A DNA stretch of 64,000 bases. Source: Syntrophomonadaceae bacterium. GTDB taxonomy: Bacteria > Bacillota > Syntrophomonadia > Syntrophomonadales > Syntrophomonadaceae. A program made the translations under genes and the position numbers. How positions within the stretch are numbered: the stretch's first letter is position 1; each line of letters opens with the position of its first letter. This document shows positions 10,405 to 30,700 of the stretch, in pieces. A model generated the notes under the pieces. The model ran no database searches and was not told the DNA's origin. It saw only the letters and a list, made by a program, of their open reading frames with translations. The stretch is taken from the NCBI GenBank assembly GCA_031553935.1, contig JAVBKS010000034.1, positions 5,034 to 69,033 on the forward strand. Direction: 5' to 3'.

Positions 10405-11016
10405 TTATGGTCGATAATCGATTATTGCATACAAGTAATCAGTCCCATCTATTTGGACAAATACAGCTACTAACCCGTAAATAAATAACGCAGTATTATC
10501 TTGAATGTTATCGACGTCTGCACAAACAAGAATAAATCCATTCTTTCTTTTAATTATCGTAGGTTTATTATCTATAGAAACCCCTTGTCCAAGGATTTGA
10601 GCAATTTCTTCCGCATAAGCTGAAACTGAATCAATATTCATTGATATATATCCATCCAATTCGGTTGCATATATTTCTTTTTCACAGATCTCAAGGTTGT
10701 TAAGTGTTAGTGTCAAATCGATCTCTGCCTCTCCAAATACAGGAAAACGCAAATTTTCTGGAATATTTTCCTTTTCTAACTCTATTGCATAATTCTTACC
10801 CCTGACTCCGAAGCTCGAGCTGAAATATCTCATAATGTTTAATTCATCTTTCACCAAAGCCCGAAATGACTTTGCATCTCTATCTTCAATCGATTTCAAA
10901 AGAATAATACTCTTCTTTTCAGACTCCGAATGGTTTCCAATTACATAGATGGTAAAGCACGATATAGTAAATAAACCTATAAACAGAATAATAATAGCAA
11001 TCCATCTTCTTTTCAC
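10405..11016 (-). CDS. Hypothetical N-terminally membrane-anchored protein
   Basis: 203-aa ORF with a GTG start, an AGAGGTG RBS, and the anchor RRWIAIIILFIGLFTISCFTIYVIG. Confidence 0.55.
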   Translation of the reverse strand: MKRRWIAIIILFIGLFTISCFTIYVIGNHSESEKKSIILLKSIEDRDAKSFRALVKDELNIMRYFSSSFGVRGKNYAIELEKENIPENLRFPVFGEAEIDLTLTLNNLEICEKEIYATELDGYISMNIDSVSAYAEEIAQILGQGVSIDNKPTIIKRKNGFILVCADVDNIQDNTALFIYGLVAVFVQIDGTDYLYAIIDYRP

Positions 11017-11275: not shown

Positions 11276-12667
11276 TTAAAGCTTAAATAGTAACTTTAAT
11301 GTAACCGCAGCTTCGGCGCGATTGGCGTTTTGGGTGCCGTTAATAAAGAAGCCTTGTTCATTTGCTTTGACCAAGTGCCCTTGTTCCAGCAGTCCGCGAT
11401 GTTGAGCATATGCTATATATGGTCTAGCCCAAGTGCTTATGCGGGTTTCTTTGGCAAAAGCAGCGATCAAATTCTGCTCGGCATTTAGGGCTTGTTGCTC
11501 TTCTCCGCTAGCTCTGACCACCATGGCTACCATCTCTTCTACTGTAAGCGGAGTATGCGGCTTAAAGGTTCCATCTTGATAACCATATACAATTCCCTTG
11601 CTAACTGCCCAATTAACATGCTGTTCATACCATGATCCGGCTTCAATATCAGAAAAGGTGCTCGCAGAGTTACTTACTTGACTGTCCTTTGCCATTTCTC
11701 TGCCCAGCATTGTCACAAACATTGCCCGGGTTAGATTCTGCTGTGGGGCAAATTCTCCTTCAGCAATTCCACTGATAATCCCTTTTGCCCCTAGCGCCTT
11801 AATTGCATCCTGCGCCCATTCGAAACCGGCTAGATCATTAAACTGCACTGCTTTCTCCCCGGCATTCCAGAGTGCAACTTCACTATTGCTATGCCCTGCA
11901 CCTACTGCAATTGCTTTAACCTTAAGCCCTGCTTTTATGGGAAGGGGGACATTTAATTGGGGCTGGTAATAACTGGCGCTTACATTATAGATTTTGCTGT
12001 TAATCGTGGGCTCTGATTCATCTGTTGTGTAATAGATCTTTACTAGGTCATAATTCTTATGGCCGAGTTCCAGTACTTCTTGCTTCTGTTCATTTAAGCC
12101 GGTTGTAAAAGTCACCGCTTCCCAGGAGGTTATTTTTTCGGTGGTAACTTCTATGTCAGCTAAGTATTTAACCATCCAGGGGCTGGTCTGTTCGCCTTTG
12201 ACCCTCTGCCCAAGGATTAGCATTAATTCTTTATCTGCTAAATCATTAAAGCTTTTGGCACTTCCTTTAAGTTGAATAAGGGCCGGAACGCGAGCCTGAG
12301 AGCTGCCGTTAAAACTATAGCGCGGATCGTTCAACAGTTCTTGACATGTAAATGTTCGGCTATAGCCATCAGATGCCGTAACTTTTATCAAGGTCGCCTC
12401 CGGCTTGTATCCAGCAAGCTTGAGAACGTTTTCCAAGGGTATACCCTCTGCATATTCAGTTTTGTCAGAGGGAAAATTGTTAGTGTGGGTATAGACATGC
12501 CGTTCTTTGCCGGCTGTGGCTTCAAGTGTCGCTCTATCTAATGTCAATACTTTTTCCACGCCATTGCCGTGAATCTTGACACTTTCGCTAGCCTCTGCAG
12601 TATTTGCTTGAAAAAAAAGCAATAATGTAAAAACCCATGCTGTTAAGGTAATTTTCTTGATGATCAA
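11276..12667 (-). CDS. SLH-domain cell-surface protein with one sulfite-oxidase-fold (molybdopterin-binding-like) module and a chitobiase/Fn3-like domain
   Basis: 463 aa. TTG start with an AAAGGAG RBS, and the signal peptide MIIKKITLTAWVFTLLLFFQANTAEA. The module RHVYTHTNNFPSDKTEYAEGIPLENVLKLAGYKPEATLIKVTASDGYSRTF ... LMLILGQRVKGEQTSPWMVKYLADIEV is followed by YYTTDESEPTINSKIYN. Three C-terminal SLH repeats are present (FNDLAGFEWAQDAIKAL..., FSDIEAGSWYEQHVNWAV...). Confidence 0.8.
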   Translation of the reverse strand: MIIKKITLTAWVFTLLLFFQANTAEASESVKIHGNGVEKVLTLDRATLEATAGKERHVYTHTNNFPSDKTEYAEGIPLENVLKLAGYKPEATLIKVTASDGYSRTFTCQELLNDPRYSFNGSSQARVPALIQLKGSAKSFNDLADKELMLILGQRVKGEQTSPWMVKYLADIEVTTEKITSWEAVTFTTGLNEQKQEVLELGHKNYDLVKIYYTTDESEPTINSKIYNVSASYYQPQLNVPLPIKAGLKVKAIAVGAGHSNSEVALWNAGEKAVQFNDLAGFEWAQDAIKALGAKGIISGIAEGEFAPQQNLTRAMFVTMLGREMAKDSQVSNSASTFSDIEAGSWYEQHVNWAVSKGIVYGYQDGTFKPHTPLTVEEMVAMVVRASGEEQQALNAEQNLIAAFAKETRISTWARPYIAYAQHRGLLEQGHLVKANEQGFFINGTQNANRAEAAVTLKLLFKL

Positions 12668-12778: not shown

Positions 12779-15700
12779 TTATCTTTGCATAAATATTTCC
12801 AGAATCTTTTTGATGATAGTTGAGGCTTCAGCCCGGCTGGCATGATCCTGGGGCTTGAAATTACCATCCATATCACCATTAAGGATTTCTAGGGCATGCA
12901 TCTCATTAACAGCGTTTAAGGCCCATGCACTGATCTGATCTTGATCTGCAAATGCTTCTGCCTCTTCATCTTGACTCAATCCCAGATTGAGTTCAGTGAT
13001 AAATTTGTAGGTTATTAAAGCCATTTGTTCACGGGTGATTTCTGTATCCGGCTTAAATAATCCGTCTTCAAATCCATTTACGATCTTTTGTTCGGCTGCC
13101 CAGAGGACATATTTTCCATACCATGCAGCAGGATCAATGTCTTCGAAACTGGTTTCCGGGTTGAATTCTAGTCTCAAGCCTTCGATAGTTGCAGCAAGCA
13201 TTTTTATAAATTCAGCTCGGGTAACATTGGCATTAGGATCGAATGCATTCTCAGCCTTGCCGCTGACAACAGCTCTGGCTGCCAGGAACTCCACATTCTT
13301 GCTAGCCCAATGATCTACAGAGTCACCAAAGGTCTGATCATTATAGCCGACTGCAAAAACGCTGAGATGATTAATAAAGCCTATTACCGCTTTGTCATCA
13401 GCATTATAGCCAGACATCGGTATAGCTACTCTATTTCCATTAGCATCAACATGATAGGCAAGTATTTTATCTTCTTTTTCTTCTTCACTCGGAGTATAAG
13501 GTATTGCAAATTTCAAAAAGCTCTGCAGTGAAGTTAGCTCCGTGCCATCAACGGCAAAACTAATATCAATCGCCGGATGCCCTGGATTCGATTCTTCTTG
13601 GCCGTTATCAATGTTAGCTACGGCAATTGTTGCAGTATTACCACTTTTCATTGCTGCTAATAAGCCCGCTAAGACCTCGGTAACAACAGTCAAATCGCCG
13701 TGATTAGTCCTAATGGATAGACCGGCTTGCCCTTGATCTACCAAGCGTTTGAGCACCTCATAGGGCAATTCTACAACTGACTTGTTTATTGTCTCGCCAG
13801 TACTACAGTTTACGATAATGTTCTTGCTGCCGGTGTCATCTGCCAGAACTTTCAGCGCTTTTTCCATGTCTTCAACCGTGATTGCCATGCTGGCTACACC
13901 ATTTTCTACCTTGACTTGGCTTTCCAGGGCTAAAGGAGTCTTTTCTTCTTCCTGTTTCGTATTGCTGCTGCCTGAGGATCCAGGTCCAGGAGTTCCTTCT
14001 CCGTTATTACCTGTGCTGGTACTGATTTCAATATCGCTTACATCACTTACCCAGTCGTCTCTATTGACATCATCGGTACTTTGCTGGGCAACAACTAGTT
14101 GTAAACCAGAGAGTGTATTACCACTTTGTTTCCAAGCTAAGAGCATTGGACCGCCATTAATGAAATTCATGGTTGGCTCACCACTGCTATCGATATTGTA
14201 TACTCGGTAATAGCCATCTGCACTTGAGATTTTGACGCTTTTTCCTCCTGATAATAAGCCGGAATTATTTAATACCGTTGATAGTTTAATTCCAGTAAAA
14301 CTCTCAGTTCCTTTAGAGCCATAATTATTAAGCCACGGATAAGATGCAGTTGTTGATCCCAGGTTTTTCAAATCATTGAGCGAATAATCTTTGTTTGACC
14401 CGTTTCTAGTTACAGTGAGAATGGCATCATTTTCGCCACCGCCTGTTCCGCCTCCGATGTTGAAAGTATTATATGCTAGTCCAGCATCAGAGCCGACATA
14501 TAAAGTGTTGCCGACGAAACCTAGATAATAGATATTATCCATGCCAACAATGTCAGGCCAAGCTTGGTTACCTGAACTATATACATTTTCTATTTCGTTT
14601 AGTTTTTTGCAATAGATAACTCCTGATCCGGAAGTCCCAAACCACAGACCATCGGCTTTATCTACTGCTACCATGCGGATTTCGTGATTACCAGCCAGAT
14701 TTTCCCCAAGTAATTCTTTGCCGGTGTAACTCACGACTGTGCGGTTCGAGCCGCTGCCGCTTACATGGTCTACTCTTCCGCCAACATTGGCTAAGGTTGG
14801 ATATGAACCTGAACGAACTATCCAAGCGCCGCCCTTACTGTCTACCGCAATTCCGCGTACCCAGGCATCAGCCAATAATGATGACTGCAATGTGCTGTCA
14901 TACTGACCTTCATAGGTTTTAGCAAAATCAATCACTCCGGCAGAATTCATATGAGCGTATCCGCCTTTGAAGAGATCATTTTCTGTACCGGTTCCATCAG
15001 GATAACAGCCTATCCATAAGCCTCCCGATTTCTCGAAAGTTATGGTATTGACAGATGCTGCCGGTAAACCATCGGCTTTGGTCCAGGTCCGCCAGGTATT
15101 AGCGGTGGGGTCGTACTTGGTAATTCCGCCAAAGGAACCGAACCAAACATCACCCTTACTGTCAATCTCGATGGCTTGGACATAATCACTGGGGATAGTC
15201 GCCGGATTATCTGCGGCCCGATACCAGGTTATACTGCCATTTTTCAGGTAGCCTATTCCTCTGTTATTCTGAGGTTCACTGTAGCTGGCATTCTGGCTGA
15301 ACCAAACCCCGCCGTCCTTGTCAACAGCCAGAGCGGAGACAAAATCATTTTCCAGCTTTGGTGTACCCTCAGTATTATAAAATGTAAAGCTGGTGTCCGA
15401 AGCAGATTTATAGGCCATGCCAGTGCCATAAGTGCCAATCCAAATTCCATTTTGACTGTCCACTTTAATGCTTCTGATTTTGGCATAGGGAAGATTAATA
15501 CTTGAAACGAAAGAATTAAACGTGTATTTAATCGGCATGGTTACCGATATTCCCTTAATACTAGTCAAACGGTTCTGCCAGTTCTCACCATCATTGAAGT
15601 TGCGATAAATTCTTACAGTTGCTTTAACCCCGTTTTTATCCGCATCTTCGATTTTAGCCAATTCCTCTAGGCTAGGTCCGGCATCATAAGCTAAAAAGTA

Positions 15701-18700
15701 TTTCTTAGCTATGGCATCCTTTAATAATATGTCGCGGTAACTCTCTTGCTTAGTTTCATAGCCGTCGGTAGTATTAATAGTGATTTTGGCATCGGGGTCA
15801 GTTACCCCGGCATCCGCTAATATATCCTGCAGATAAGCACCCTTGACATAATCAGTTTTCTTCTCTCCGGCTTGAGTATAAGAATAATTAGCAGTGGCTT
15901 TGCCTTTATCATTAGGCAGTTGCATGATTCCACCGGCACCGCCAATCCTATAATTCTTGACTCCTGCACTTAAACCGAAAATGCTGAAGTCATTAGTATC
16001 AACCGGTATCACAACTTCCGAATCTCCTACTACGATTTTCTCAAGCCATTTTACGCACCAGCCGGTATTATCATGGACAACTAGGCGCAATGGCCCGAAT
16101 GCATTGCCGTAGTTAGAATCGTAACCGGGGGATTGTTCGTTCTCGACCAAGGGCAGGCCCTGAGTGGCATTGAGACCCTGACCATAAGCAATTATGATGG
16201 GCTTCCCATTAACTCCATTCTTGAGTTGGGCGCCGTCAAATTGGGCTGAAAAACCACCCGAATACGCGGTAACAACCGCAGTATCCAAACCATCTTTAAA
16301 ACCTATCCCCTGCAGGTATTTATATAGATCTATACCTTGCATAAAGAATTCGCCGCCCATTTTGTAGGTGTCGGCAACTTTAATATTGTCTAATGCTTCT
16401 AATGCAGCTACTGTAACCTTCTGCGGGGTTGCAATTTTATTGCCGTTTATCTCCAGCTCGTGACTGGCATAGGGCGCGAAGTTTCCAGACTTGTGGGTCC
16501 AGTCATTAATGGCACCGGCTATAAGCTCGATCTCGGTTACTGATGTAATGCACTGGCTTGCAGTGCCATTATTAATTATCAGCCGCAGTGGACCGCCGCT
16601 ATTATTGTATCCGGCGTCAAAGCCCGGTGATTGCTGTTCCGGCACCAATGGCTTCCCATCAAGAATTCCGCCGCTGCCAGCAATACCATAAGCCAAGATG
16701 ATTTTTTTGTTGCTGTCTGTCAAGTCGGCAATACTTAATTCGATACTATCTTGGCCATTTTTAACTATGATAGCGTTCAGCAAGGCACTGCTGCCTATCG
16801 AGCTGTCGTTTAGCAAGCGGAATAGTTCCAAGCCTCTATAAGTAACCGCTTTGTCTCCAATGGTATACTCTCTCGTGGATAAATACTTTTGCTTCTTTTC
16901 TAAGTCGCTGATTTTAATATCACCAGGTTTAGCCAAAGCCCCTGAGAACTTAACTTCCATATCGCCATAACCAGAATAGGTTTCACCGGTATGGGCATAA
17001 GCATCAGCTTCCATATTAACTACTATCTTGGTTAGGTTCTCGACTATGGTTTTGTTGTCATTGATGGTATCTACAATTCCGCCATTCTTTTCTTGTTCAG
17101 TCTGGCCACGAACGAATAGCAAAGGCCCGCCGGTATTCTTAATAACTTTTCCGGTCACAGTATCGCTATCTACATATCCCGTACCTTTTCCGTTTACTAA
17201 GGGATAGCCATTTTTGGCAAAGGCAATCATCATGCCAAGTTTATCCGTGCCGTTAATACTGTTGAAACCCTCAGCTCCAAGTTGATTCAATTGATAAGAT
17301 GCCTTCAGGGTGTCACCGCCGTATAGATCAACACTTCCCAGACTTCCAGGTAAACCTATATATTCGGTCAGTAAATAATTCAGGTTAACTCCTTCGAATA
17401 GATCCTGTATTTGATCGCCATTACCTGCTTTCTTGTAGTAATAGTAACCCTTTTCCTGGCGTCCTTCCGTATCCCTAATCTTTTTGGTTATTCCTGTTCC
17501 ATAGAGGATGTTTTCTAATTGCGATAGGGTTAGCTCATGACTTTCTTGGGTGCCATTTATTTCTATAGTTAAGGCTGGGTTGTCTTTCATTGCAGCATAA
17601 TCGGGATTCTGGGCATGGGTTGAGTAACGAATTTCGTCGCCCACATATATTTCTTGGGCCCGCTGCAGCTGATTAGAACCGTTATTGTAGAAATAGGCAT
17701 AGTTATCTGGAGCATTACTGTCAATGCGATTCATATTATCGGCTTTGCCAAAAATAACCCTAACCGGTCCGCCGTCATTGCCCAGTCCGCTGCGAAAGCC
17801 CTCTAGAGTGCTGCTGCGCACATAAGGATAACCGTTTACACCATATGCCAGTAAAACCGGATAACCTTTTTTAACCGGATAGTTATTAGAGTCCTTGCTC
17901 CAATTGCCTTCACGGTTGTCGGGCTGATAAGCTGCAGTTGCCAGCTGTTCTTTTGTAGGTCTGGCGGTTCCGATATCTAAGGGTGACTTCTCATAAAACA
18001 TGAATAAATCTGGATTAGCTAGCTGTTGCAATGAGAATTTCGCTGTGGTCAGATAATTATCCCAAGCCGTAAATGATACCAGATTAGTATTATCATTTTT
18101 ATATTGTTCAGCATCCAGACCTAATTTCTGGGTAAGCAATTCCCAGAGCTTAATGCCTTCGTATTCATTTACATACCAATAAGTAGTGTTGGAAAGACCA
18201 TATTCATCTCGGTATCCCAAACCATCTGCTTTCGGTCTCTTATTATCGTCGTATTCGACCATGGCTTCGAGTTCAGCTATGGTATAGTTAACCTCTCTTC
18301 CCAGTAGGGCTCCGGTAAAAGTTAATAAGTATTCGGTATTGGTCTTATTGCTATAGGCCGGATCAAGTGCCTGAGAATGCTTGTAACCAGGTGTGCCCCC
18401 ACTGGGTTCAACATAAATATAGGCTACACTGAGGAATTTTTTCGACTTACTTATATTCTGAAACTCGTTTAAATCATAGACCAATTTCAAACAGCCGTCA
18501 TCATTGCCGAGTTCGGGCTTAGTTCCGAGTGCTCCATCATAAACGAATGGGGCTACACTAGTACCATCCAAGGTTCCGGTACCATAGGCTAAAATCAGCG
18601 GTTTCTTGGCAGTTATTACATCATTATATGGAATTCGGGCTACCTCCTGGCGCCAGCGGTTCTTGAAAACTAAAACTACATCTTCGTCTACTTTGGCAAC

Positions 18701-20464
18701 TGTTGCTTTTACATGGCCTTCGATTATGTCTTTGATTATTATTCCTTCATATAATAATGAAGTTTCATTATCACGAAAATCATTGTAGGCGCCGCGATGA
18801 ATATAAGCATCAGCACTGTTTTCTAATTCCCGCACTGACATCGGTGTAGTGGCCTTGACTCCAGGGCCTTCTACCGTCAAGGTTGCACCGGTAATAGCGT
18901 CGATATTATAGGGAGCACTGCCGCTTAAGCCGCCGTTATTAATGTGCTTATAGGGACTGCCGGCATAAGATTTTTCATCAATTGTGATATTATCAACCAT
19001 TTTAGCCGGGGTCATGTTATCGACATATAGGGTTAAGTAGCCTTTGATTGTTTTATCATTTTTAGCTGTTGAATAAATCGCTTCCCAATTGCCTTGATTC
19101 TTGGTTTCATAGGCCAGAATGGCATGCTTATCAACAAGATCTTTTTTAGTCATACCATCTGCAGCTACTTTAAAGCCATCTGCAGCAGCAAACTTAATTA
19201 CATCATTGTCTTTGTATTTTTCCAAAAGCTTAGCTAGGGATACTCCCCTCACTTCGGCCACGGTTTCATCAGAAGCACCCGTCTTTACAAAACGATGTTC
19301 CTGCTCAGTACGTTCCATCATCAATAATTGCGCCCGGGTGTAATTGTCGTCTTTGGTCTTGAGGGCTATTGTTGCAATTGGTTGCTGGTCCCCGATCAAT
19401 ACTCTGAACAAGGGAGTGGGGCCATTAAAGAGGGGATTATTGTAGTCGTTTAGCGCTAATTGTCCGGCCATGATGCGCAGTTTCGAGTCATCATAAGCGC
19501 TGACTTCAGTTGGTGTTTCGATTGTTCCTCTTGCTCCGCCTTCAGCCCAAGCTACAATAGTCGGAACCTCAATTGCGCCTGCGTCGCTATTATCTCCTAT
19601 CTGGGGATAATAGTAGCGGTCAGCTGTAAAAACCTGTGAAATATTTGCCTCATTTGTTACACCAACTGTAGTTTTTGCTGGATCAAATACTATTTTATAA
19701 CCATCACCAGCGAATACAGTCACTTTATTATTGGCTAAATCAGCATCAGTTTTTGCTAATAAAGCTGCAAGTCTTATGCCTTCACCTCGGAAAACACTCT
19801 TTGTATTAGCTGTATTTATGGCCGAGTATAAGTATTGGTTATTAGCAGCTGCATTCTCGTCTTGTTCAGCAATTGCCAAAAGTTCAGCCAATGAATAAGC
19901 TTTCTCTTGGTTAATATTATTTTCCGTATATTCACCATTTCCGATAATTGCATTTCCGCTTATTAATAATACCGGCTGTTTGGCAGCTCTCATCTGCTCA
20001 TAGTCCAAGGACTGGGAGCCAAGAAGCATATTAAGCAATGATTCATCTTCCAGTTTCATTTCCCAAACATTTGACTGATCTGAATCTTCTGCTTCTGTTT
20101 CTGCTTCTATGGTATCGGAATCAGAGGGCAATTGTTCTTGTCCAGTGGCAGCCTGATCTGCTTCATCCGGTCCTCGGATTTGATCAGCATCGCCTTCATC
20201 TGGTGCTTCTGCCAATGGCACCTCAATCACTTCATCTAGTTCTGAATCTGTTAAATCACCGGCCTCATTCGCATTTTGCCCCTCTAATTCAACAGCATCA
20301 TTATCAGGAGTTTCATTAGTGTCAATGATTTTTACTTCTGTATCTGTTGCCCAAGCCTGTCCTAGAGAAAGGCCTGAAGGTGCAAGTATTTGCATAATGA
20401 AAGCCAAAATGATTATATAACTGATCAAAGATCTGCTATTTTTTTGGTTTCTGGTTTTTAGCAT
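12779..20464 (-). CDS. Giant (~2561 aa) S-layer-homology-anchored protein: ~9 tandem sulfite-oxidase-fold (oxidoreductase molybdopterin-binding-like) modules, a Reg_prop-type beta-propeller, and 3 C-terminal SLH domains
   Basis: The track ORF starts with TTG at 20524. The ATG at 20464 has an AGGGGG RBS and gives the signal peptide MLKTRNQKNSRSLISYIIILAFIMQILAPSGLSLGQAWA. Repeated modules end in ILAYG...GGPLRLIINNG, IIAYGQG...FGPLRLVVHDNTGWCVKWLEKIVV and LLAYGVNG...GGPVRVIFGK, as in the YedY/MsrP and sulfite oxidase Moco domain. Propeller blades include IRSIKVDSQNGIWIGTYG, VSALAVDKDGGVWF and VQAIEIDSKGDVWFGSFGG. SLH repeats begin at FGDSVDHWASKNVEFL.... Confidence 0.85.
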   Translation of the reverse strand: MLKTRNQKNSRSLISYIIILAFIMQILAPSGLSLGQAWATDTEVKIIDTNETPDNDAVELEGQNANEAGDLTDSELDEVIEVPLAEAPDEGDADQIRGPDEADQAATGQEQLPSDSDTIEAETEAEDSDQSNVWEMKLEDESLLNMLLGSQSLDYEQMRAAKQPVLLISGNAIIGNGEYTENNINQEKAYSLAELLAIAEQDENAAANNQYLYSAINTANTKSVFRGEGIRLAALLAKTDADLANNKVTVFAGDGYKIVFDPAKTTVGVTNEANISQVFTADRYYYPQIGDNSDAGAIEVPTIVAWAEGGARGTIETPTEVSAYDDSKLRIMAGQLALNDYNNPLFNGPTPLFRVLIGDQQPIATIALKTKDDNYTRAQLLMMERTEQEHRFVKTGASDETVAEVRGVSLAKLLEKYKDNDVIKFAAADGFKVAADGMTKKDLVDKHAILAYETKNQGNWEAIYSTAKNDKTIKGYLTLYVDNMTPAKMVDNITIDEKSYAGSPYKHINNGGLSGSAPYNIDAITGATLTVEGPGVKATTPMSVRELENSADAYIHRGAYNDFRDNETSLLYEGIIIKDIIEGHVKATVAKVDEDVVLVFKNRWRQEVARIPYNDVITAKKPLILAYGTGTLDGTSVAPFVYDGALGTKPELGNDDGCLKLVYDLNEFQNISKSKKFLSVAYIYVEPSGGTPGYKHSQALDPAYSNKTNTEYLLTFTGALLGREVNYTIAELEAMVEYDDNKRPKADGLGYRDEYGLSNTTYWYVNEYEGIKLWELLTQKLGLDAEQYKNDNTNLVSFTAWDNYLTTAKFSLQQLANPDLFMFYEKSPLDIGTARPTKEQLATAAYQPDNREGNWSKDSNNYPVKKGYPVLLAYGVNGYPYVRSSTLEGFRSGLGNDGGPVRVIFGKADNMNRIDSNAPDNYAYFYNNGSNQLQRAQEIYVGDEIRYSTHAQNPDYAAMKDNPALTIEINGTQESHELTLSQLENILYGTGITKKIRDTEGRQEKGYYYYKKAGNGDQIQDLFEGVNLNYLLTEYIGLPGSLGSVDLYGGDTLKASYQLNQLGAEGFNSINGTDKLGMMIAFAKNGYPLVNGKGTGYVDSDTVTGKVIKNTGGPLLFVRGQTEQEKNGGIVDTINDNKTIVENLTKIVVNMEADAYAHTGETYSGYGDMEVKFSGALAKPGDIKISDLEKKQKYLSTREYTIGDKAVTYRGLELFRLLNDSSIGSSALLNAIIVKNGQDSIELSIADLTDSNKKIILAYGIAGSGGILDGKPLVPEQQSPGFDAGYNNSGGPLRLIINNGTASQCITSVTEIELIAGAINDWTHKSGNFAPYASHELEINGNKIATPQKVTVAALEALDNIKVADTYKMGGEFFMQGIDLYKYLQGIGFKDGLDTAVVTAYSGGFSAQFDGAQLKNGVNGKPIIIAYGQGLNATQGLPLVENEQSPGYDSNYGNAFGPLRLVVHDNTGWCVKWLEKIVVGDSEVVIPVDTNDFSIFGLSAGVKNYRIGGAGGIMQLPNDKGKATANYSYTQAGEKKTDYVKGAYLQDILADAGVTDPDAKITINTTDGYETKQESYRDILLKDAIAKKYFLAYDAGPSLEELAKIEDADKNGVKATVRIYRNFNDGENWQNRLTSIKGISVTMPIKYTFNSFVSSINLPYAKIRSIKVDSQNGIWIGTYGTGMAYKSASDTSFTFYNTEGTPKLENDFVSALAVDKDGGVWFSQNASYSEPQNNRGIGYLKNGSITWYRAADNPATIPSDYVQAIEIDSKGDVWFGSFGGITKYDPTANTWRTWTKADGLPAASVNTITFEKSGGLWIGCYPDGTGTENDLFKGGYAHMNSAGVIDFAKTYEGQYDSTLQSSLLADAWVRGIAVDSKGGAWIVRSGSYPTLANVGGRVDHVSGSGSNRTVVSYTGKELLGENLAGNHEIRMVAVDKADGLWFGTSGSGVIYCKKLNEIENVYSSGNQAWPDIVGMDNIYYLGFVGNTLYVGSDAGLAYNTFNIGGGTGGGENDAILTVTRNGSNKDYSLNDLKNLGSTTASYPWLNNYGSKGTESFTGIKLSTVLNNSGLLSGGKSVKISSADGYYRVYNIDSSGEPTMNFINGGPMLLAWKQSGNTLSGLQLVVAQQSTDDVNRDDWVSDVSDIEISTSTGNNGEGTPGPGSSGSSNTKQEEEKTPLALESQVKVENGVASMAITVEDMEKALKVLADDTGSKNIIVNCSTGETINKSVVELPYEVLKRLVDQGQAGLSIRTNHGDLTVVTEVLAGLLAAMKSGNTATIAVANIDNGQEESNPGHPAIDISFAVDGTELTSLQSFLKFAIPYTPSEEEKEDKILAYHVDANGNRVAIPMSGYNADDKAVIGFINHLSVFAVGYNDQTFGDSVDHWASKNVEFLAARAVVSGKAENAFDPNANVTRAEFIKMLAATIEGLRLEFNPETSFEDIDPAAWYGKYVLWAAEQKIVNGFEDGLFKPDTEITREQMALITYKFITELNLGLSQDEEAEAFADQDQISAWALNAVNEMHALEILNGDMDGNFKPQDHASRAEASTIIKKILEIFMQR

Positions 20465-20534
20465 ATATGTAGTACCCCCTATTATCTTTTCTTTCCTTTT
20501 CATCACATCAATAATTCGTGGCAATTAATATCCA

Positions 20535-21677
20535 TTAATCTACCATTATCAATGAATCGACCAAACCAGGTGTTGTCGTTATACCCAGGTCATTACCAAT
20601 AATCACTCCTTCCATCATAAAATCGGTTTTCGCCTTAGAGAATTCCCCTATAAACTGCATGCCCTTTTCCGGACCCATAACCATTAACGCTTTGGTCATC
20701 ATATCAGCCTCAGTGGAGCTTTTTGCTATCACGGTAGCCGCAACACATTTGGTTGTTGGCTTTCCTGTCTGGGGATCAAATATATGATGATATCTCTGGC
20801 CATCAATCTCGAAATACCTCTCGTAATCACCAGAGGTCACCAGTGAAGCATCAACAACCGGCAAAACTGCAATTACTGCATTTTCGTCCTTACGCGGATG
20901 TCTAATTCCTATCTGCCAAGGCTTCCCATCCGGCTTGGAACCCACTGCATATACATTTCCTCCCGCATTAATTATGGCATGTTTTATTCCCTGTTCTTTC
21001 AGTTTTTCTACAGCTTTGTCAGTAGCATAGCCCTTAGCAATTCCGCCCAAATCCATTATCGTACCCCTGTTAACCATGATTTCATCTCCGGCAAGCGTAA
21101 TACCCTTGTAATTGCCGGCTTGCAGAGCTATCGCCAGTTCATCAGCTGTTGGTATATGTTTTTTACCCTTAATGTCCCATAAGTCACTTACCCGTCCCAA
21201 ACCGATGTCAAAAGTGCCACGACTAAGATCACCAAATTCTAAGGCCCTACTAACCATGGCAATTAAATCCGGTGATACTTTCACCCAAGAACCGGGCGAA
21301 TTATTGATTCTGTATACGTCGCTGCCGCTGGGATCCTGCAAGTTTCGGGCTGCAAATCTATCGGCTAGAATATCAATGCGGTTGTATTCAGCTTCAACCG
21401 CTTGCCTTGATTTTTCTGCCTGTTCGGGCGATTCGGCATAAATTATCAAAGTGATTACAGTATCAAGCGCAAAGAAATTGGTTCTATACTCAGACAGATC
21501 GGCAGCACTTACGTTAGGATTAAGTGTATTGCGTTCACTAATTGAATGGCCGCCATTTTGGCAAGCATTTACGAAAGGAAGAAATAATATAAGAGCAATG
21601 ATGATCTTGGCAGATGATTTGGTTTTACGTAACTTTTCTGAACTTGATCCTAAAAAATACAAAACACATTTCCCCAT
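20535..21677 (-). CDS. apbE: FAD:protein FMN transferase (ApbE family), predicted lipoprotein
   Basis: 380 aa with ApbE hallmarks GGIAKGYATDKA, INAGGNVYAVG and TSGDYERYFEIDGQRYHHIFDPQTGKP. The lipoprotein signal is KIIIALILFLPFVNAC. The stop codon lies 10 nt from the giant ORF and about 70 nt from its likely ATG. Confidence 0.9.
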   Translation of the reverse strand: MGKCVLYFLGSSSEKLRKTKSSAKIIIALILFLPFVNACQNGGHSISERNTLNPNVSAADLSEYRTNFFALDTVITLIIYAESPEQAEKSRQAVEAEYNRIDILADRFAARNLQDPSGSDVYRINNSPGSWVKVSPDLIAMVSRALEFGDLSRGTFDIGLGRVSDLWDIKGKKHIPTADELAIALQAGNYKGITLAGDEIMVNRGTIMDLGGIAKGYATDKAVEKLKEQGIKHAIINAGGNVYAVGSKPDGKPWQIGIRHPRKDENAVIAVLPVVDASLVTSGDYERYFEIDGQRYHHIFDPQTGKPTTKCVAATVIAKSSTEADMMTKALMVMGPEKGMQFIGEFSKAKTDFMMEGVIIGNDLGITTTPGLVDSLIMVD

Positions 21678-21893: not shown

Positions 21894-22117
21894 TAAAATT
21901 ATTAAATTATTCAATATTTTCTTTTTCTAAGTGAAAGTAAATGTCAATATTAACATAATAATATCATAATTCCATCTATTTCGACAATAGTTGAGCAAAT
22001 TTTCTGATAATTTAAAACATTTCGTGATTTCTCGATTATTACGAGCTGAGTTATAAAAATGTTTTCTAAAGCTCGAAAAAAGGCTAAACTTAATAAAACG
22101 CATTAAAGGTGATTCAT

Positions 22118-23671
22118 ATGAAAAAAATTCTAAGTATCCTATTAGCAGCACTGTTTATACTTATTTATGATCCAATAGTCTTAGGCGACATTTATATCGA
22201 AAACGGGGTCCCCACTGAAAACCCGCGCAGATATGTTTATGACGATTTTCAATTAGTAAAAAATGCCTCTTCCGGCATTAACATCATTTATGATTATCCG
22301 AAAGGTTACTCCCTATTCTATCCGGCTAACCTTGAAATAGACACTTCACTCAGCGAGATAAAAACAGTATTGGCGAATAAGGATACTCAGATTGAAATCT
22401 ATAGAGATAACTTTGCTAAGACTACGTATAATTTCAATAGTTACCATAGTATCAGTAATTATTTTCTCAATAACGGTACTGATCATAAACTGCAAGAAAA
22501 CCGAACAGTAAAAATAAATGACCACACTGCTTATTTACTAAAATGGAACCGGGCGAAATTGAAACAAATCGAAAATGACAAGAACAATTATTTAAGTTTG
22601 GAAATCGCGGTTTCCCCAACTCTAGTTTATACAATTATTGTTAAGTCAAGCCATGAAGTTGACGCCATACTTCCTTATTTAACTACTTTCAACTTAATCG
22701 AAACTCAAGGCGCACCACATAACAATACAATTTTTAAGCCGGTTGAGAAAGATTGGAATGAGGAAACCAAGCTTTTCTTCGATGAGTATTTTTCTCCTGA
22801 GGCCAAAATAAATTGGGGCATTTACGAGCATACTGCACCGGCTAGCTTAGACTTCTTGAAACAATTGGAAAGCAAACTCGGCCATAGATTCAGCATTTTA
22901 ACCCATTATCATACTTTCCATACCCCATTTCCTATGCAGGAACTTAAGAATGCTTATGCTGAGAAGCGTATAGTAGAACTAACTCTGCAGACAATGTGGT
23001 TTAAGCGCGACAATAACAGCACCATTTATCAGATTCTAAATGGCGATTACGATGTGTATTTTAAGAATTATGCCCTGAAAGCAAAAGAATTTGGCCATCC
23101 CATTCTCTTCCGCTTCAATAATGAGATGAATGCAGAGTGGTGCTCCTATTCCAGTTATTTCACGTCTAAGGATCCGGAGCTCTTCAAAGCTATGTGGCGT
23201 CACATTTATAGTATTTTCCAAGAAAATGGCGCCGATAATGTATTGTGGATTTGGAATCCCACTGATGTGTCTTACCCGACTTTCAAATGGAACAGTGCCC
23301 TAAACTATTTTCCCGGTAATGAGTATGTAGATATCGTAGGACTAACCGGGTACAATACCGGAACTTATTATCAAGGCGAAAACTGGCGTACTTTCAGTCA
23401 GATCTATGATCCCCTTTATACCGAATACTGTTTAGCTTTCGATTACCCCTTTATGATTACTGAATTTGCTTCCAGCTCAGTTGGCGGCAATAAGGAGCTA
23501 TGGATTGCAGATATGTTTAAACAAATCGAACGCTTCAAAAAAATCAAAGTAGCCATTTGGTTCAATGGAGTCGATTTCGATGCTAATATGCAGCAGGCTC
23601 GCAAATACCGTTTAGATGATACCCAAGCGGTTGTCAATGCCTTCAAGGATGGATTTAAGCAGTATAATTAG
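22118..23671 (+). CDS. Secreted glycoside hydrolase family 26-like protein (beta-mannanase-type)
   Basis: The track ORF starts at 22109. An AAGGTGA RBS precedes the ATG at 22118, giving the signal MKKILSILLAALFILIY. The C-terminal half has GH26-like motifs FRFNNEMNAEWCSYS, LWIWNPTD, YVDIVGLTGYN and ITEFASS. Confidence 0.65.
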   Translation: MKKILSILLAALFILIYDPIVLGDIYIENGVPTENPRRYVYDDFQLVKNASSGINIIYDYPKGYSLFYPANLEIDTSLSEIKTVLANKDTQIEIYRDNFAKTTYNFNSYHSISNYFLNNGTDHKLQENRTVKINDHTAYLLKWNRAKLKQIENDKNNYLSLEIAVSPTLVYTIIVKSSHEVDAILPYLTTFNLIETQGAPHNNTIFKPVEKDWNEETKLFFDEYFSPEAKINWGIYEHTAPASLDFLKQLESKLGHRFSILTHYHTFHTPFPMQELKNAYAEKRIVELTLQTMWFKRDNNSTIYQILNGDYDVYFKNYALKAKEFGHPILFRFNNEMNAEWCSYSSYFTSKDPELFKAMWRHIYSIFQENGADNVLWIWNPTDVSYPTFKWNSALNYFPGNEYVDIVGLTGYNTGTYYQGENWRTFSQIYDPLYTEYCLAFDYPFMITEFASSSVGGNKELWIADMFKQIERFKKIKVAIWFNGVDFDANMQQARKYRLDDTQAVVNAFKDGFKQYN

Positions 23672-23763: not shown

Positions 23764-24552
23764 CTATTTTGTCACCCCTCTATTAGAGGAGCTGCTCGGT
23801 GCTTTGATTAGTCCTTCAACCTTACTTCTGCTAAGGCCGGTTAAACGAACCAATTGCCTTACTGATATATTGCCTCCAAGTAGCTTTTTAAGATATCTAG
23901 TCTGCTCTCTTTCGCCAAGCGTTTGGAACTCTTGGAGGTCATTTAGCTTACATTCCTTTTTGATTATTCTTGCTGCAACATGATCGCCGATTCTTTTTTT
24001 CTCACTGAATTCCAAAAACAACTGCTTATTATCAGATCTATCATTTACCATTTCAATGATAGTATCCAGGGGAATAATTTCGAATAGTTGCTCATGATCA
24101 ATTATTGCAGATGTATTCTTTAGCAGACGAAAGCTGCTCCATTGAAAGTCCTCTGCTATTTTGCATAGCTTTGCTTGTACCGGTTTTAAATAAATATATC
24201 GCAGCACTTTTGTAAAATAAGTTACATCTTCTACCGGAATGCTCTTGTAGCGGTCTTGAAATAGATGCCCGCTGCGTTCATATTTTTGGTTGTACCAATA
24301 TACGAAACGCGCTCCTAGTCTTCGAAAGGCTTGAGCAAGAGTTTCTTCTCCCTCTTTAATAAGAAGATGCACCTCATTACCTAATAGTACATAAGCATAG
24401 AGCTCAAATTTGCTTAATTTCTTACTTTCTTCCAAACAATACAGGAATCTTTCTTTATCTTCTTCATCTTTGAATATCATCTGTTGGTTGGCAGCTCGAA
24501 GTATTACATGGTAGATTCCAGTCTCACTTTTATGGCGTGCTGCTCTTGGCAT
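23764..24552 (-). mobile_element. REP-associated tyrosine (Y1, IS200-like) transposase-like protein with C-terminal HTH
   Basis: 262 aa. Supporting segments are GIYHVILRAANQQMIFKDEEDKERFL, EVHLLIKE, HLFQDRYKSIPVED and RYIYLKPVQAKLC..DFQWSSF (RAYT/COG1943 pattern), followed by the HTH SVRQLVRLTGLSRSKV. Confidence 0.75.
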
Positions 24553-24773: not shown

Positions 24774-27700
24774 TTATCTGAGTCCTAGAGTTTTTTCAAT
24801 TATTATTACTGCTTCCGCCCGAGTGGTTGTATCTTTAGGTGCAAAAATGTTTCCGGGTTTACCGCTAATAATTTTATACTTAATTCCTTTGCGTACATCT
24901 TCTCTTGCCCAATCAGCAATATCCGCGCTGTCATTGAAACTCATTTCGATATATTCTTGCGTTACCATCTCCGGAATCCCCAATTGGTCACATAGACGAA
25001 TGATGATGCTGATTGCCTGTTCTCTGGTAATCATGGCATCGGGGCCAAAGGTATTTTCGTCCATACCAGCTACGATTTTCATGGAGGCTAGCACTTCAAT
25101 ATTGTTTCTGGCCCAATGGTTTTCAACATCCTTAAATGTGATTACAGGCATATCTTGTGGTAATTCCAAGCCAAATGCCAACTTCAGCATAGTGCAGAAC
25201 TCAGCTCTGGTAACCGGGCTATCCGGATAAAACCAGCCTTCGGTTTTACCTTTTACCCAGCCTGAATTATTGGCAGCAATAATACTGGCCCTGGCCCAGT
25301 GCTCATCGATATCACTGTATGGCGATAGGTCCGCAAGTGGTATGTCTTTTTCATCTTCCTGAACATTTTCATTCCACTGCGCATATACTCTGATACTGCT
25401 GTTCACTTCACTAGCGCTGGTAAACTCTTCTCCGCTGCCATCAGCTTTGGTATTCCACTCTTTGAAAGTAAACCCTTCCCGAACAGGAACCGTCGGGAAA
25501 ACGATGCTTTGCCCTAAGCTATAACTAATATTAGTATAGCTGCCACTGCCATCATTCATGTCAAAAGTAATTATATGATTGCGTGAATTCGAGCTGCTGC
25601 CACCACCGCCGCCACCGCCGCTGTAACTGAACTCGGCTTGAATGGTATGATTAGCCCTCACATTGCTGAAAGTATAACTCTCCAGCGCGCCTTTGTTCTC
25701 ACCGTCAACGATTACGCTCTTAATTGCGTAGTTAGCTGAAGGTGCTATGGCAAAGCTTTTGCTTTCGCCTGATAGTACTTCAACATTGCCACTGGGCGTT
25801 ATGCTTCCGCCGCTACCGCTGCTTGCCTGTATGGTAAAAGCAGGCACCGGATTATTTATGGTCGCGGTAGTGCCTACGACCGTGTTTTGATTAAGCATAT
25901 CAGTTATATGCAGGCTTAGTTCATATTCACCCGATGGAATCTGATGACTCATAGCAGTTGGATAACTCTTGCCCTCAAAAGTTTCTAGCACATATTTAAT
26001 CGGGTCATTGCTGCCCACCTTTTTATAGCCCAATGAAACTTGGCGAATCCCGGAATACTTTTGATCATAGTTCCAAGCTGCTTGGTCATCACTGACTGTA
26101 AAGCCTGATATTGCAGGTTTTCCTGATATGGTACGCTTAGGTGCTTCTTCATCCACATCAGTACGGATTGGTTCATTGTAGTCGAAAATGATTTGTGCAA
26201 CTGGAGCAAAGGTAGTTCCCGGGACCAAATCCGAACGTACTCTTACAGTAAAATTCAAGAATCCTTCTCCCTCGGGAGCGATTACATTGGGCGGCAAAAT
26301 AATATCTTGAAACACCCAGATCAAATCACCATCCGCATTGGGAACTGTTACCACCGCCGGTTTGCCGTTCTGGTCAACAAAAGAGGTGGATGCTATTGCT
26401 AAGCTCTCTAGATCCCATACTTCGCTCAGTTTAAATCCATTTTGCTGCTCGGGAAGCACGATGCGGATATCACGAGCAGGCATGACCGCCTCAGCTTTGT
26501 TTTCGAATACAATTGATATCCTAAGTTCTTTGCCCGGCAAAATCCATTTTTCTTCACCGGGAGCTTCCGGAGTAATCCTAAGCGCATTCGGGTCTTCTGC
26601 AGTTCCGGTACCGCCGCCGCTGTTTCTTGGCTTATTAGTACAAGTATCCACATTAACCGGATAAGGGATTTCGGGAATATCTCCTAGCCCAACTAGGGCT
26701 TCCCACCAATTACCTTGAATATTGTTTTCTTCCCGGTACATCCGAATGTCATTGCTTAGCAGAAGTGCTTCTGCCAGGGCCTGCTTTGCTTCCGGGCTGG
26801 AATTATAGTTGAATCCGGTCTGATCATCCAGGGGACGGCCTTCATAGATATTCATATATCCCCCTAGAATATCTCTGGTTTTTATTAATCCTCCGGCTCC
26901 GCCTCCAGCAGCACCCCAAACCATGTCCAAATAGTCGACTATGAAATTGACTTTCTGCTTTTGATCAGCATTTTGCAAACCTGCCATCTGCATTTGGCCG
27001 TCTAGGGCTTTAGTAACACTTTCAATCTGGTCATTTTTGATTTTAGTATAAGCAAGCTTTGAATACTCGTGGCTTTTTTCCAAAGTAGCAAAGGCAAATG
27101 CTGTAACCGGATGATATTCCGCCAATTTTCCGATTCCGTACTTTTTGACCGCGTTTTGGGGGTCGAAAAGATTATCGGATTTGCACTCCGGAGCATCAGC
27201 TTCCGTATCTAATGCCGCTTTAAAATCCATTACCTCATTGGCGATATCTTCCACTGTGTCAGAGGAAATGCTTAATGCTTTCACCTGCCCAGCCGATGAT
27301 AATGAAGCTTTTCTCAGGCCTTGATCGAGACTTACATATGGAGCTGAGGGCATACTGGCGATATAAGGCTGAATCAAGTTAGTGCCGTAATTAACGCCGA
27401 ATTGACCACTGAAAAGGTAATTATAGGTATGGGGAGCTGTGATCTTAAGCATATCCTTATAGAGCTTAAGCCTTTGATCATGACTGCTTTGCTCCCAGCT
27501 GGAATCAGAGCTAACTCCCGGGAAACTATAAATGGGCACATGTACCATTTCTTCCGCATCATTTTCCTCATAATTGTACAAATACAGCGGAGCTATATCC
27601 CGAGCATTATTCATAGTCTCGATGTATTTATCCCATAGGTGCCGGTATTGTTCGGAATTAAGTTCACCACTTAATCCCAGGCTTTGCCATTGCTCTTCCG

Positions 27701-30700
27701 TAAACATCGCACTTACGCTTTCACCGCTGAACACTACTCGGGGCTGATTACCCCAGACCCACTTGGCGCTGCTCTTCCAAGCAATGTCGGAGCTGGAACC
27801 GGCCTTTACTTTGACAACCGCTACAACCGCGTAAGCATCTTGCTCATTATCTGCTCCTTTATCTTGGATAACATAACTGGCTTCAACTGGACTTATTAGT
27901 TGGGGACGACGCTCTTTTAAGTCGGCTAGTCCGGTTTCAATATCGTATTCATATGATCCGGCTAAACGGCCGGGATGAGCAAAATATACCAAGGCATAGC
28001 CGTCCTGCACCCCATCGTTATAAATCCTCCAGATAGAAGTGTTGCTACGGGCATTTGCCATAGTAGGACTCAGTACTTTTTCGGAACGCATTAGCGGAAC
28101 TGGGGGTGCTAAAGCCACCTGCTGGCCGCAGGCCTGCCCATTTACCAAGACATCGTATAATCCGGCTTTATACAGAGCAGTTGTTGTTGCTAGAGCTGTC
28201 CCGTTCTCAAATTCCGTTTTGCAGGGAACCTGCAGATTACCTGCTTGCAAGCCAATATTTCCATTCTTATAAGGATAGAAACTGAAGCTGCCGTCGGCAT
28301 TATAAAAGCCACTCCAGGCCTTGCTAGGAACATCAGCTTGATTCACTGAAATCGGCAAGCTTTGATTAGCATAGACATAGCGGCTCATATATTGTTCAGC
28401 AACGGACTGGTTATCGCGGAAGGCAATATCTAGATAAGTTTCCCCGGGACGCTTAAACTGTACCGGTACATAGAACAAAACTGTCCCTTTTTGAAGATTT
28501 GTCCCGGATTGCCGGAAGGTAATATTAATCGCATTGCTGATCCCGCTGCCGGCGACATAAATATTGCTCTGGTGATTTCCCCGCAGCAAGCCCCCCGTAA
28601 AATCATCTCTGCTAAGTGCAAGGCGGGCTGCCATAGGTGCCGATGCATACATTAAGTTAAGTGCATTATAGGTACGAGGCTTGAAATCCAGGGCTTTGGT
28701 GTCCCAGGTTACCGTCATGCCTAAAGAGTTCGCGATAAGCTCATCAGAGTCTAAAATCACCGGTATATATGCTATTTCTCCCACTTGAGCTGAAATTTCT
28801 GCTCCCGCGCTGCCGTCATCTAAGATTGCTCTCGGGGTACCGGTTTTGAGTTTAAGTGGGGTAAGGCCCTCAATCTTAGTTTGAACAATATTAAAAATAC
28901 TGATTCCGGAGCTACAAACTAACCAAGGTCTGCTAACACCCATTATTCGCGCTCCCGGCGCTTTTTTGAAACGCACTCTTACATCGTAAATCTTGTCTTT
29001 ATTAAGCTGTCCCTCATTTAATTCAGCTGACAGTGTTGATCCGCTGCTGTCAAATGATGCTATTATTTGTCCAGCGTCCATGACCGTGATCTCCAAAGAA
29101 TCTCCAGCTGTTATGCTCAAAGGCTTTAAACTGGGAACCCCATTAAGGATATTGAGGTCTCCCTGCAGATATAGCCCTTGTTTTCCCTCTCCGCCAGATT
29201 TCATCTGCATGGTGTATTCCAGATAAGTATCTCCATCCCATAGTATGTTCATATTATGGAACGGGGCGAAATATTTATCATAAGAACTTAGATTATGTCC
29301 ATGTATATCGAAGCCTACATTATATCCAGGCTCTAAGATACTGCTTTGATAGCGGTACCCAGCTGCTGTTAACCGCTGCTGCAAAATCTCACCTAGTGCA
29401 AATGGGCAAACAAAAGTGCCGTCCGAGTTGCGCCCGGAATAAAAACTGCTATCAAAACTATACGGATCGGATGCGTAATAATTAATAGTGCTTAGCCTAA
29501 AATAGCAGGGATACAGACTCTGACCGCTAATAGTTTCAATTGCTCCTTCACCATTAGCCTCGGTGCTCAGATGACATGTTAAGCGGCCGTAATAGTATCT
29601 ATTCTCCCATTTGATCCCAGCCGGCAAATGAGTGCGCATTACTATTGGAAAGCTTCCAAGAGTGCTAATTCTCCCGTCGGAAGGCAGCCCTACCAGATCA
29701 AGCAGATAATTGGGTTTGAAAATAGGTATTTGGGCAAAGTCTTCCTGTTTATAGGAAAAATAGACTTTATCCACTCCATAGCGGCCGTTTAAACCACTGT
29801 TTAAAGTAATAACTGCCTTGTCGAAACCAGTATTGCCATTGGAAAAAATAAGTGTAGACATATCTAAAGGTCCGGTTGCCATATCGACGCTTTTATAGGT
29901 TTTGCTAGTATTGTTTTCTCCATTATATATGGAGACCTTTAAAGTATCGTCAGCATCTAAGCAGATTGCATGACCGTCATTCCCAGTCAAAAATAATGGT
30001 GCTGTTTCTTTGCCTTCCACTAATTTAGTTGCTGTTATCTCTACCTGAGCATAATCGAAACCACTGCCGGCAGTTAATGAATCCTCACCTAGACCCTGCC
30101 AGGCAATGCCAGGTTCTTCTTCCGTTTGACTGATACCAGGTAAAATGAAATCATAAGCCGGTATCAGGTCCTCTCCACTGCTGCTAAAAAGCAGTGTACC
30201 TTGCTCCGAATAGTTTTGTGCTTTGACCTTGATGCTTATGGCTTCACCAATAGTATCTCCACCGGGTTCGGTCAATTGTAAGCTGAAATGATCACTGCCG
30301 CCATTGAAGACAGCTTTTTCCACGCTTATATCAGCTTGAGCATATAATGGATAGGTACTTGATTGTCTGCCCTTATGATTAGCAGTGACCGGCAGCTCAT
30401 GGGTTCCATCAGGAAATTTAAGGTTATCGCTTGCTTTGATGATCAATGGAATACTGGGCAGAGGATCACCTTGATTCCCGCTCCAGCCTTTATACTCAGC
30501 AGTTATTACCAAGGTGAATTTTTCCACTTGTCCACTGGTTTGATCAAAGGTCAGGGTTTCACCTGAAGTGGTAATATATGCGTTTTCCACCTTTACGAAT
30601 CGGCCGGACATCATTTCAATATTTCCGGCTATTCCGTCCATAGTGGCATTGAAGTATAAAAAATCTCCATGTTCGGGATTAACTTGTCCCGGAAACACGA

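Follow-up and report, generated by a model that had tools for sequence, protein, structure and literature searches.

The question raised by this locus is whether a seven-residue motif in a giant surface protein, encoded directly behind a gene for flavin adenine dinucleotide (FAD):protein flavin mononucleotide (FMN) transferase (apbE), is a genuine site of covalent flavinylation, and in what kind of protein fold such a site would lie. The DNA in question, hereafter the window, is a 64,000-nucleotide stretch of contig JAVBKS010000034.1 (assembly GCA_031553935.1) from a Syntrophomonadaceae bacterium. Flavinylation by ApbE is the main known route for placing flavins outside the bacterial cytoplasm, and surveys of its substrates have been built on Pfam domains. 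The substrate proposed here would extend that range to an unexpected fold, that of sulfite oxidase (SUOX) and PruR, which normally holds a pterin. A reading made from the letters alone (the sequence-only reading) had raised the possibility that the motif is a real ApbE site served by the adjacent apbE, and our computational analysis supports it. We predict, with a probability of about three in four, that Thr548 of this SLH-anchored protein is flavinylated by ApbE in vivo, because the motif is exact, the positions required by the enzyme are highly conserved, sister modules lack the motif, the linkage to apbE is conserved, and the bare motif suffices for the enzyme.

The features that carry this prediction are given below. 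Coordinates are those of the window, and amino acids of the giant protein are counted from the TTG at 20524.

12779..20464, minus strand: giant surface protein gene, 2561 amino acids from Met21; the open frame reaches the TTG at 20524
18860..18958, minus strand: conserved putative flavinylation block SPYKHINNGGLSGSAPYNIDAITGATLTVEGPG, amino acids 523-555, the most conserved block of the family
18881..18901, minus strand: ApbE recognition motif D-A-I-T-G-A-T, amino acids 542-548, matching D-[A/G]-x-[S/T]-G-A-[S/T] at 7/7 positions
18881..18883, minus strand: codon of Thr548 (Thr528 when counted from Met21), the last motif residue and predicted FMN phosphoester acceptor
18365..18880, minus strand: SUOX/PruR-like module without molybdenum cofactor (Moco), directly after the motif, amino acids 549-720, family profile score 280 bits

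The minus-strand open reading frame (ORF) at 12779..20524 comprises 2581 codons from the TTG, and its translation includes ...SGSAPYNIDAITGATLTVEGPG...; the likely start is Met21 at 20464, and the resulting product of 2561 amino acids corresponds to protein P0031 of a public collection. Around the motif, the translation reads ...YKHINNGGLSGSAPYNIDAITGATLTVEGPGVK..., and the peptide stretch covering Thr548 is ...PYNIDAITGATLTVEGPGVK. The string I-D-A-I-T-G-A-T occupies amino acids 541-548 (nucleotides 18904..18881, minus strand). The sequence-only reading had correctly recognized the motif, its 7/7 agreement with the consensus, and the L-T-V-E-G that follows, but its coordinates (18905-18882) were shifted by one base. 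The acceptor is placed at the position defined for the seven-residue ApbE motif in PMC12052999. In the six-frame translation of the 64-kb window, D-[AG]-x-[ST]-G-A-[ST] matched once, at this site, and no second protein bearing the full motif was found in any of the six frames; given the composition of the giant protein itself, 0.005 matches would be expected among its 2581 residues. A relaxed second site, T-G-A-S at amino acid 415, was dismissed, as the homologues do not keep it.

The fully unbiased evidence for conservation comes from a word-seeded search with amino acids 395-754, which was not seeded on the motif, and from the alignment of the proteins that it retrieved. These 17 proteins were 36-49% identical to the query, and 12 of the 15 invariant or near-invariant columns of the 360-residue alignment fell within a block of approximately 32 residues around the motif. 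In the window protein, this block reads S-P-Y-K-H-I-N-N-G-G…P-Y-N-I-D-A-I-T-G-A-T-L-T-V-E-G-P, and it opens with S-x-Y-K-H-I in the family. When a profile of the block plus the following module was searched exhaustively with HMMER against 1.84 billion protein representatives (E-value ≤ 0.001), 110 representatives were recovered, 74 of which carried 77 instances covering the block; the weaker matches were sister modules lacking the insert. Over the 77 instances, the successive motif columns contained D in 66, A in 60, I in 63, T in 67, G in 57 (S in 12, giving G or S in 69), A in 70, and the acceptor T in 76. Loss of the motif in orthologues had been named at the outset as the observation that would speak against a real site; the acceptor Thr was instead kept in all but one of the instances, and it lies in the stretch that the family conserves best. 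Rare substitutions (of the Asp by A, S, N, or P, and of the Gly by S) occur at positions with partial effects in published mutagenesis, in which Thr-to-Ala replacement abolishes flavinylation and Asp-to-Ala replacement has a minor effect (PMC12052999). The block occurs in two architectures: proteins of 1500-2900 amino acids with the block at around amino acids 390-430, to which the window protein belongs, and lipoproteins of approximately 1000 amino acids with the block at around amino acid 60. In many homologues, the block begins approximately 30 residues past the lipoprotein cysteine.

The genomic setting involves the transferase gene, the export and anchoring signals of the giant protein, and a downstream partner:

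20535..21677, minus strand: apbE, FAD:protein FMN transferase, Pfam ApbE E-value 3.7e-80 over profile positions 1-257 of 266
20348..20464, minus strand: Sec-type signal peptide of the giant protein, amino acids 21-59, ending in AWA with TD next, read from the translation
12782..13330, minus strand: three SLH domains (cell-wall anchor), amino acids 2399-2581, Pfam SLH E-value 9.9e-37 in three stretches
11276..12667, minus strand: downstream partner gene, 463 amino acids, with a signal peptide, one PruR/SUOX-like module, Fn3_assoc/CHB_HEX_C_1, and SLH

The transferase gene lies 10 nucleotides upstream of the giant ORF, and its identity, as originally proposed, is borne out by the Pfam match and by the NCBIfam model 'FAD:protein FMN transferase ApbE' (E-value 3e-38); the protein contains GGIAKGYA, TSGDYERYF, and YHHIFDPQTGKP. 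Its N-terminus, ...IIIALILFLPFVNAC (...LFLPFVNAC), was judged by reading to be of the signal or lipoprotein type, with a lipobox-like end, and the N-terminus of the giant protein, MLKTRNQKNSRSLISYIIILAFIMQILAPSGLSLGQAWA followed by TD, was likewise judged to be of the signal type. Because both N-termini are of this type and the giant protein carries SLH domains, both products are expected to lie outside the membrane, in agreement with their first description as extracytoplasmic.

Gene order was compared across approximately 80-82 loci from species-representative genomes, all of them Clostridia-type metagenome-assembled genomes, including Syntrophomonas, Peptococcaceae, Anaerovoracaceae, Mogibacterium, and Oscillospiraceae. 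In eight further species-level genomes (L004, L011, L016, L017, L020, L033, L037, and L040), the giant proteins of which were 38-54% identical to that of the window, apbE directly preceded the giant gene in the same orientation, and it was located within 5 kb at a ninth locus (L046). By a rough estimate, based on one or two copies per genome of approximately 3 Mb, chance would place apbE within 10 kb at well below one of 82 loci. The complete unit of apbE, giant protein, and 463-residue SLH partner, in this order, recurred in L004, L011, L016, L020, and L040, with proteins that were 38-52% identical, and orthologues of the partner (43-46% identity) directly followed the giant gene in L004, L005, L011, L016, L020, and L040. 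The translated partner lacks the flavinylation motif. It starts with a PruR/SUOX-like module, VKIHGNGVEKVLTLDRATLE...YAEGIPLENVLKL, and weakly matches the NCBIfam model 'GEGP motif-containing diheme protein' (E-value 2e-6, far below the cut-off). When metagenomes were scanned with the window ApbE, only distant ApbE proteins (32-45% identity) were retrieved, none of which was encoded beside the flavinylation block.

What, then, is the structural context of the motif? The giant protein consists, in order, of the Sec signal, an acidic linker, approximately nine SUOX/PruR-like modules, a Reg_prop β-propeller, and three SLH domains; the modules are divergent, span 130-250 residues each, and are interrupted by the propeller at around amino acids 1660-2010. 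As a whole, the protein scores 63.8 bits against Pfam Oxidored_molyb (PF00174; cut-off 24). An alignment of the protein's own linkers showed that they share a skeleton, (Y/W)-x-H ... (P/G)-Y, which leads into strand β1 of the next module, and that in the third module N-I-D-A-I-T-G-A-T fills the variable stretch separating P-Y from β1. The motif is thus an insertion of approximately nine residues in the linker just ahead of β1, and the sister modules in the same proteins have the same fold and linker skeleton but lack the insert, which shows the motif to be dispensable for the fold. The same alignment bears on a caveat of the sequence-only reading, namely, that two other modules begin with FTGAL and FSGAL and that the TGA(T/L) core might therefore partly reflect a strand conserved throughout the family. 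Both strings line up with V-E-G-P-G in β1 and not with T-G-A-T, so that the caveat does not apply.

Two AlphaFold2 models were calculated, one of amino acids 395-754 (predicted local distance difference test score, pLDDT, 81) and the other of amino acids 505-730 with a 30-sequence alignment (pLDDT 84, predicted template modeling score 0.81). In both, I-D-A-I-T forms a short helical turn, and G-A-T runs into β1 of a β-rich module, with a pLDDT of approximately 90 at TGATLTVEGP and 89-97 across the module. The top Foldseek match in the PDB was PruR 7kp2 (E-value 6.6e-5, target template modeling score 0.69), and further PruR entries (7kom/7kos) had E-values of 3e-4 to 4e-3, with PruR target scores ranging from 0.62 to 0.69 at a probability of 1.00; these were followed by the sulfite dehydrogenase SorA (2ca3) and YedY/MsrP (1xdy and 1xdq). 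No entry with the FMN_bind fold was returned. The family profile matched no PDB sequence at E-values of ≤ 10, and NCBIfam contained no model for the flavinylation block or the module. The motif-adjacent module is barely recognized by PF00174 (one of 30 family members at E-value < 0.1) and has family-specific residues of its own (YEG, KNRxRQ, AYG, PFVYD, and GNxDGC), including K-N-R-x-R where the sister modules carry x-D-G-Y. In the family alignments, no Mo-ligand cysteine is present in the R-G-x-Y-x-D-x-R...Y-E-G segment before the invariant Y-E-G. The sole conserved Cys (G-N-x-D-G-C) is located where the sister modules have G-G-P-L-R, a placement that is based on alignments. Tat export is expected of a periplasmic Moco enzyme loaded with its cofactor. 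No twin-arginine (R-R) motif was read in the signal peptide of the giant protein (MLKTRNQKNSRSLISY...AWA), and given its Sec export signal, a molybdenum cofactor is not expected. By the predicted structures and profile matches, the motif leads into a SUOX/PruR-like module without Moco and is not embedded in a degenerate FMN_bind domain.

The explanation that competes best with flavinylation, although we consider it unlikely, is that the block is conserved as a structural lead-in to β1, that its agreement with the ApbE consensus is coincidental, and that the ApbE serves other proteins, such as an Rnf complex encoded elsewhere. It draws on the fact that conservation exceeds the seven residues read by ApbE, extending to Y-K-H and P-Y-N on one side and to the invariant T-V-E-G-P of β1, preceded by L, on the other, as well as on the linker skeleton common to all the modules and on the absence of an adjacent apbE from most of the related loci. 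However, the nine-residue insert is absent from sister modules that have this fold and belong to the same proteins, and conservation is highest at the positions required by ApbE, above all the acceptor Thr and the Ala before it. Furthermore, apbE is directly upstream in nine species, including that of the window, where well under one would be expected by the rough estimate given above, and the window encodes no other protein with the motif. An even less likely explanation is that the motif Thr receives another modification (O-glycosylation or phosphorylation), or that the site binds a noncovalent ligand such as a pterin, and that no flavin is involved. S-layer proteins are frequently glycosylated, and the module is PruR-like, both of which would suit this explanation, but the family has kept the full seven-residue ApbE consensus and not merely a hydroxyl residue, and it is apbE that travels with the locus, not a glycosyltransferase or kinase gene.

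There is least to be said for an ordinary FMN_bind domain (PF04205), of the kind in PplA, NqrC, and RnfG, that has been missed through sequence drift: weak Pfam matches do occur at the motif in the window protein (18.9 and 17.1 bits, and nowhere else in it) and in 23 of 30 family members, and one fragment, P0105, continues past G-A-T with the canonical helix VSSKAVTRA, but all these scores (17-19 bits) are under the gathering cut-off of 22, the matches cover only profile positions 35-67 or 45-67 of 77, the block starts approximately 30 residues after the lipoprotein cysteine in many homologues, too early for an N-terminal FMN_bind β-sheet to precede it, G-A-T leads into a β-strand of a SUOX-fold module in place of the FMN_bind helix, and Foldseek gives PruR, SorA, and YedY only. 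A canonical FMN_bind domain was rejected on these grounds (partial, sub-threshold scores and the wrong modeled fold), consistent with the first impression, formed from the letters, that no full FMN_bind-like domain surrounds the motif; the sub-threshold matches span 23-33 of the 77 profile positions, and this local resemblance counts in favor of an ApbE site. The fragment P0105 itself, a 100-residue metagenomic sequence, shares its lipoprotein N-terminus and block with P0007 as far as ...PYNIDAITGAT and then passes into an FMN_bind-type helix, VSSKAVTRAVNSAV; it is either an assembly chimera or a natural hybrid that would hint at how the block arose.

Several observations weigh against the prediction that Thr548 is an ApbE target. 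Approximately 72 of the 82 loci have no apbE within 10 kb, including L003, the closest relative, and L005, and the eight loci with an adjacent apbE are related to one another (Syntrophomonas and similar), so that they may represent one ancestral arrangement. The window encodes no recognizable membrane electron-transfer component (Ndh2/EetAB, DUF4405, or Rnf/Nqr), and there is no obvious electron source for a single flavin in the S-layer. The Asp of the motif is replaced with A, S, N, or P in a few family members, and the loop ahead of the motif (the length-variable GGLSGSAP) is poorly modeled, with pLDDT values of below 50 to 60. Two of the data sets also have a built-in bias: the profile for the exhaustive search was constructed from sequences that carry the motif, and the motif also served as the pattern for retrieving the genome loci. 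Because the motif was the scan pattern, these loci are not evidence of its conservation and were used for gene context only.

The proposed site can be compared with three groups of known proteins, the first of which is the ApbE substrates. The seven-residue motif alone suffices for ApbE when it is in an accessible position, according to a review (PMC12052999), and the engineered Flavin-tag of Tong et al. (2021), as summarized in that review, is a bare motif that is flavinylated at a terminus or in a loop without an FMN_bind scaffold. The window site resembles the Flavin-tag in being a short motif without this scaffold, but differs from it in being natural and evolutionarily conserved and in being part of a longer conserved block, which probably helps to shape a flavin pocket as well. 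It shares with FMN_bind substrates (Listeria PplA, NqrC, RnfG, NosR, and PceC) the pattern D-x-x-[S/T]-G-A-[S/T], the terminal Thr, and the T at +2 (G-A-T-x-T); these substrates are likewise extracytoplasmic and served by an ApbE/FmnB that is often encoded nearby. Unlike them, it lacks the FMN_bind fold, and a β-strand of the SUOX-fold module stands in place of the FMN_bind C-terminal helix. There is precedent for ApbE sites in unrelated folds: DUF2271, DUF3570, Flavodoxin_4, and FMN reductase substrates (PMC8238504, PMC11334425) were found by means of the apbE neighborhood and a conserved [S/T]GA[S/T], the same logic as that applied here. They differ from the present family in fold (here SUOX/PruR-like) and in their hosts, which in the present case are giant SLH-anchored proteins or lipoproteins of approximately 1000 amino acids from Clostridia.

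The substrate classes in these two surveys are FMN-bind1/2, NqrB/RnfD, DUF2271, DUF3570, Flavodoxin_4, and FMN reductase (PMC8238504, PMC11334425). A SUOX/PruR-like class was not found in the text of either survey, nor was a PF00174 entry in one part of the supplement of PMC8238504. The earlier of the two noted that genomes with orphan apbE genes remain and that rarer substrates were unidentified (PMC8238504). Our literature searches found no paper tying ApbE or flavinylation to sulfite oxidase and nothing relevant for flavinylation in combination with molybdopterin or the S-layer. The predicted site is therefore most likely of a kind absent from the surveyed substrate classes, representing both a new substrate fold and a new substrate protein family.

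The second and third groups share the fold of the module. PruR proteins are secreted SUOX-fold proteins without a Mo-ligand cysteine, in which a pterin is held between aromatic residues; Tyr/Trp form the sandwich together with an Asn, and a P-W motif is a further hallmark (PMC11194511). They are the best structural match of the module (7kom, 7kp2, and 7kos), which is likewise secreted, SUOX-like, and without the Mo-ligand Cys. However, PruR is a proteobacterial, single-domain protein of approximately 135 amino acids that binds free pterin noncovalently and regulates DcpA (PMC11194511), whereas the modules in the window are repeated within a giant Gram-positive surface protein, are only approximately 14-17% identical to PruR, and include one that is preceded by a covalent-flavin motif. 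The neighboring genes in the window comprise apbE and genes for SLH proteins, an IS200-type transposase, and a GH26 enzyme, but none for a DcpA-type diguanylate cyclase-phosphodiesterase or a sensor kinase. The SUOX molybdoenzymes (YedY/MsrP and SorA; PF00174) match in fold by Foldseek, and the whole protein scores on Oxidored_molyb, but the window module differs from them in having no conserved Cys in the hairpin before Y-E-G and in being exported by Sec rather than Tat.

These comparisons can be assembled into a possible mechanism. Both proteins would be exported by Sec, judging by their signal peptides, and ApbE would then attach FMN to Thr548, as the motif, its conservation, and the synteny suggest. 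The motif is an insertion ahead of β1 of a SUOX-fold module that has no Mo-ligand Cys, a placement based on Pfam, on AlphaFold2 with Foldseek, and on the linker alignment. The tethered isoalloxazine may dock on this module, perhaps in the cleft where PruR binds its pterin and SUOX enzymes bind Moco. A protein anchored to the cell wall would thereby carry one redox-active flavin module. That conservation exceeds the seven motif residues and that the module has features of its own (K-N-R-x-R) suggests that the block and module together form the flavin site. A flavin is a benzo-pteridine, and docking in a truncated pterin cleft is therefore chemically attractive, although our confidence in this docking and in any function is much lower than that in flavinylation itself.

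At the level of the family, the gene neighborhoods offer a hint about function. A Peripla_BP_2/FecCD/ABC-ATPase importer stands beside the homologue in 39 of the 82 loci (e.g., after L001 13135-16032), and the closest solved relative of its binding protein is an 'iron complex' binding protein, 4hn9, which is unassigned. Because an importer of the iron-complex type is present in about half of the related loci, a role in reduction-coupled uptake is suggested for the family, in which a substrate, such as a metal chelate, would receive electrons outside the cytoplasm before its import. Against such a role in the present organism, the clade of the window protein is without the importer and keeps the order apbE, giant gene, and 463-residue SLH partner instead, and no ABC importer of the iron-complex type was found in the window. 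The broadest interpretation, which we offer tentatively and regard as doubtful, is that the family constitutes a new class of covalent flavoproteins, with FMN tethered before a Moco-less SUOX/PruR-like domain and the flavin lying in the ancestral pterin/Moco cleft; the lipoprotein forms would be reductases feeding an ABC importer, and the giant SLH forms would be S-layer-anchored redox enzymes of syntrophic and other anaerobic Clostridia. If this is true, a pterin-binding fold has been turned into a surface-exposed flavin redox module, and a reductive uptake pathway exists in Gram-positive bacteria. The prediction also provides a first functional handle on large, unannotated surface proteins of Clostridia (Syntrophomonas, Anaerovoracaceae, Mogibacterium, and Oscillospiraceae, among others), including organisms from the gut and digesters, and many members of the family are linked to importers of the metal-chelate type.

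The remainder of the window contains several other genes of possible interest. A second giant SLH-anchored protein (24774-31655, minus strand; 2293 amino acids) contains DUF7619 and Flg_new repeats and no flavinylation motif. It is separated from apbE by a GH26-like gene (22109-23671, plus strand) and an IS200-type Y1 transposase. The stretch at 23764-24552 (minus strand) was noted together with this protein. Five consecutive small ORFs at 6014-11016 (minus strand) encode proteins of 201-310 amino acids that have no Pfam match and whose N-termini look like signal or lipoprotein sequences. At 3630-5547, a TetR regulator adjoins a nitroreductase and an NADPH-dependent FMN reductase (FMN_red), representing flavin chemistry of the cytoplasm with no evident link to the locus. 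Approximately 10 kb from the locus, the gene at 360-2069 (minus strand) encodes a 569-residue protein with three Shr-like heme-binding HID stretches (Pfam E-value 1.6e-26) and Cu_amine_oxidN1, which may be a heme-acquisition surface protein. Finally, on two metagenomic contigs, L117 (at around 6830-6950) and L119 (at around 5100-5190), a gene near a distant apbE encodes a low-complexity C-terminal tail with tandem D-A-T-S-G-A-S, D-G-V-S-G-A-T, and D-A-I-T-G-A-S motifs, and these tails resemble natural flavin-tags outside the FMN_bind fold.

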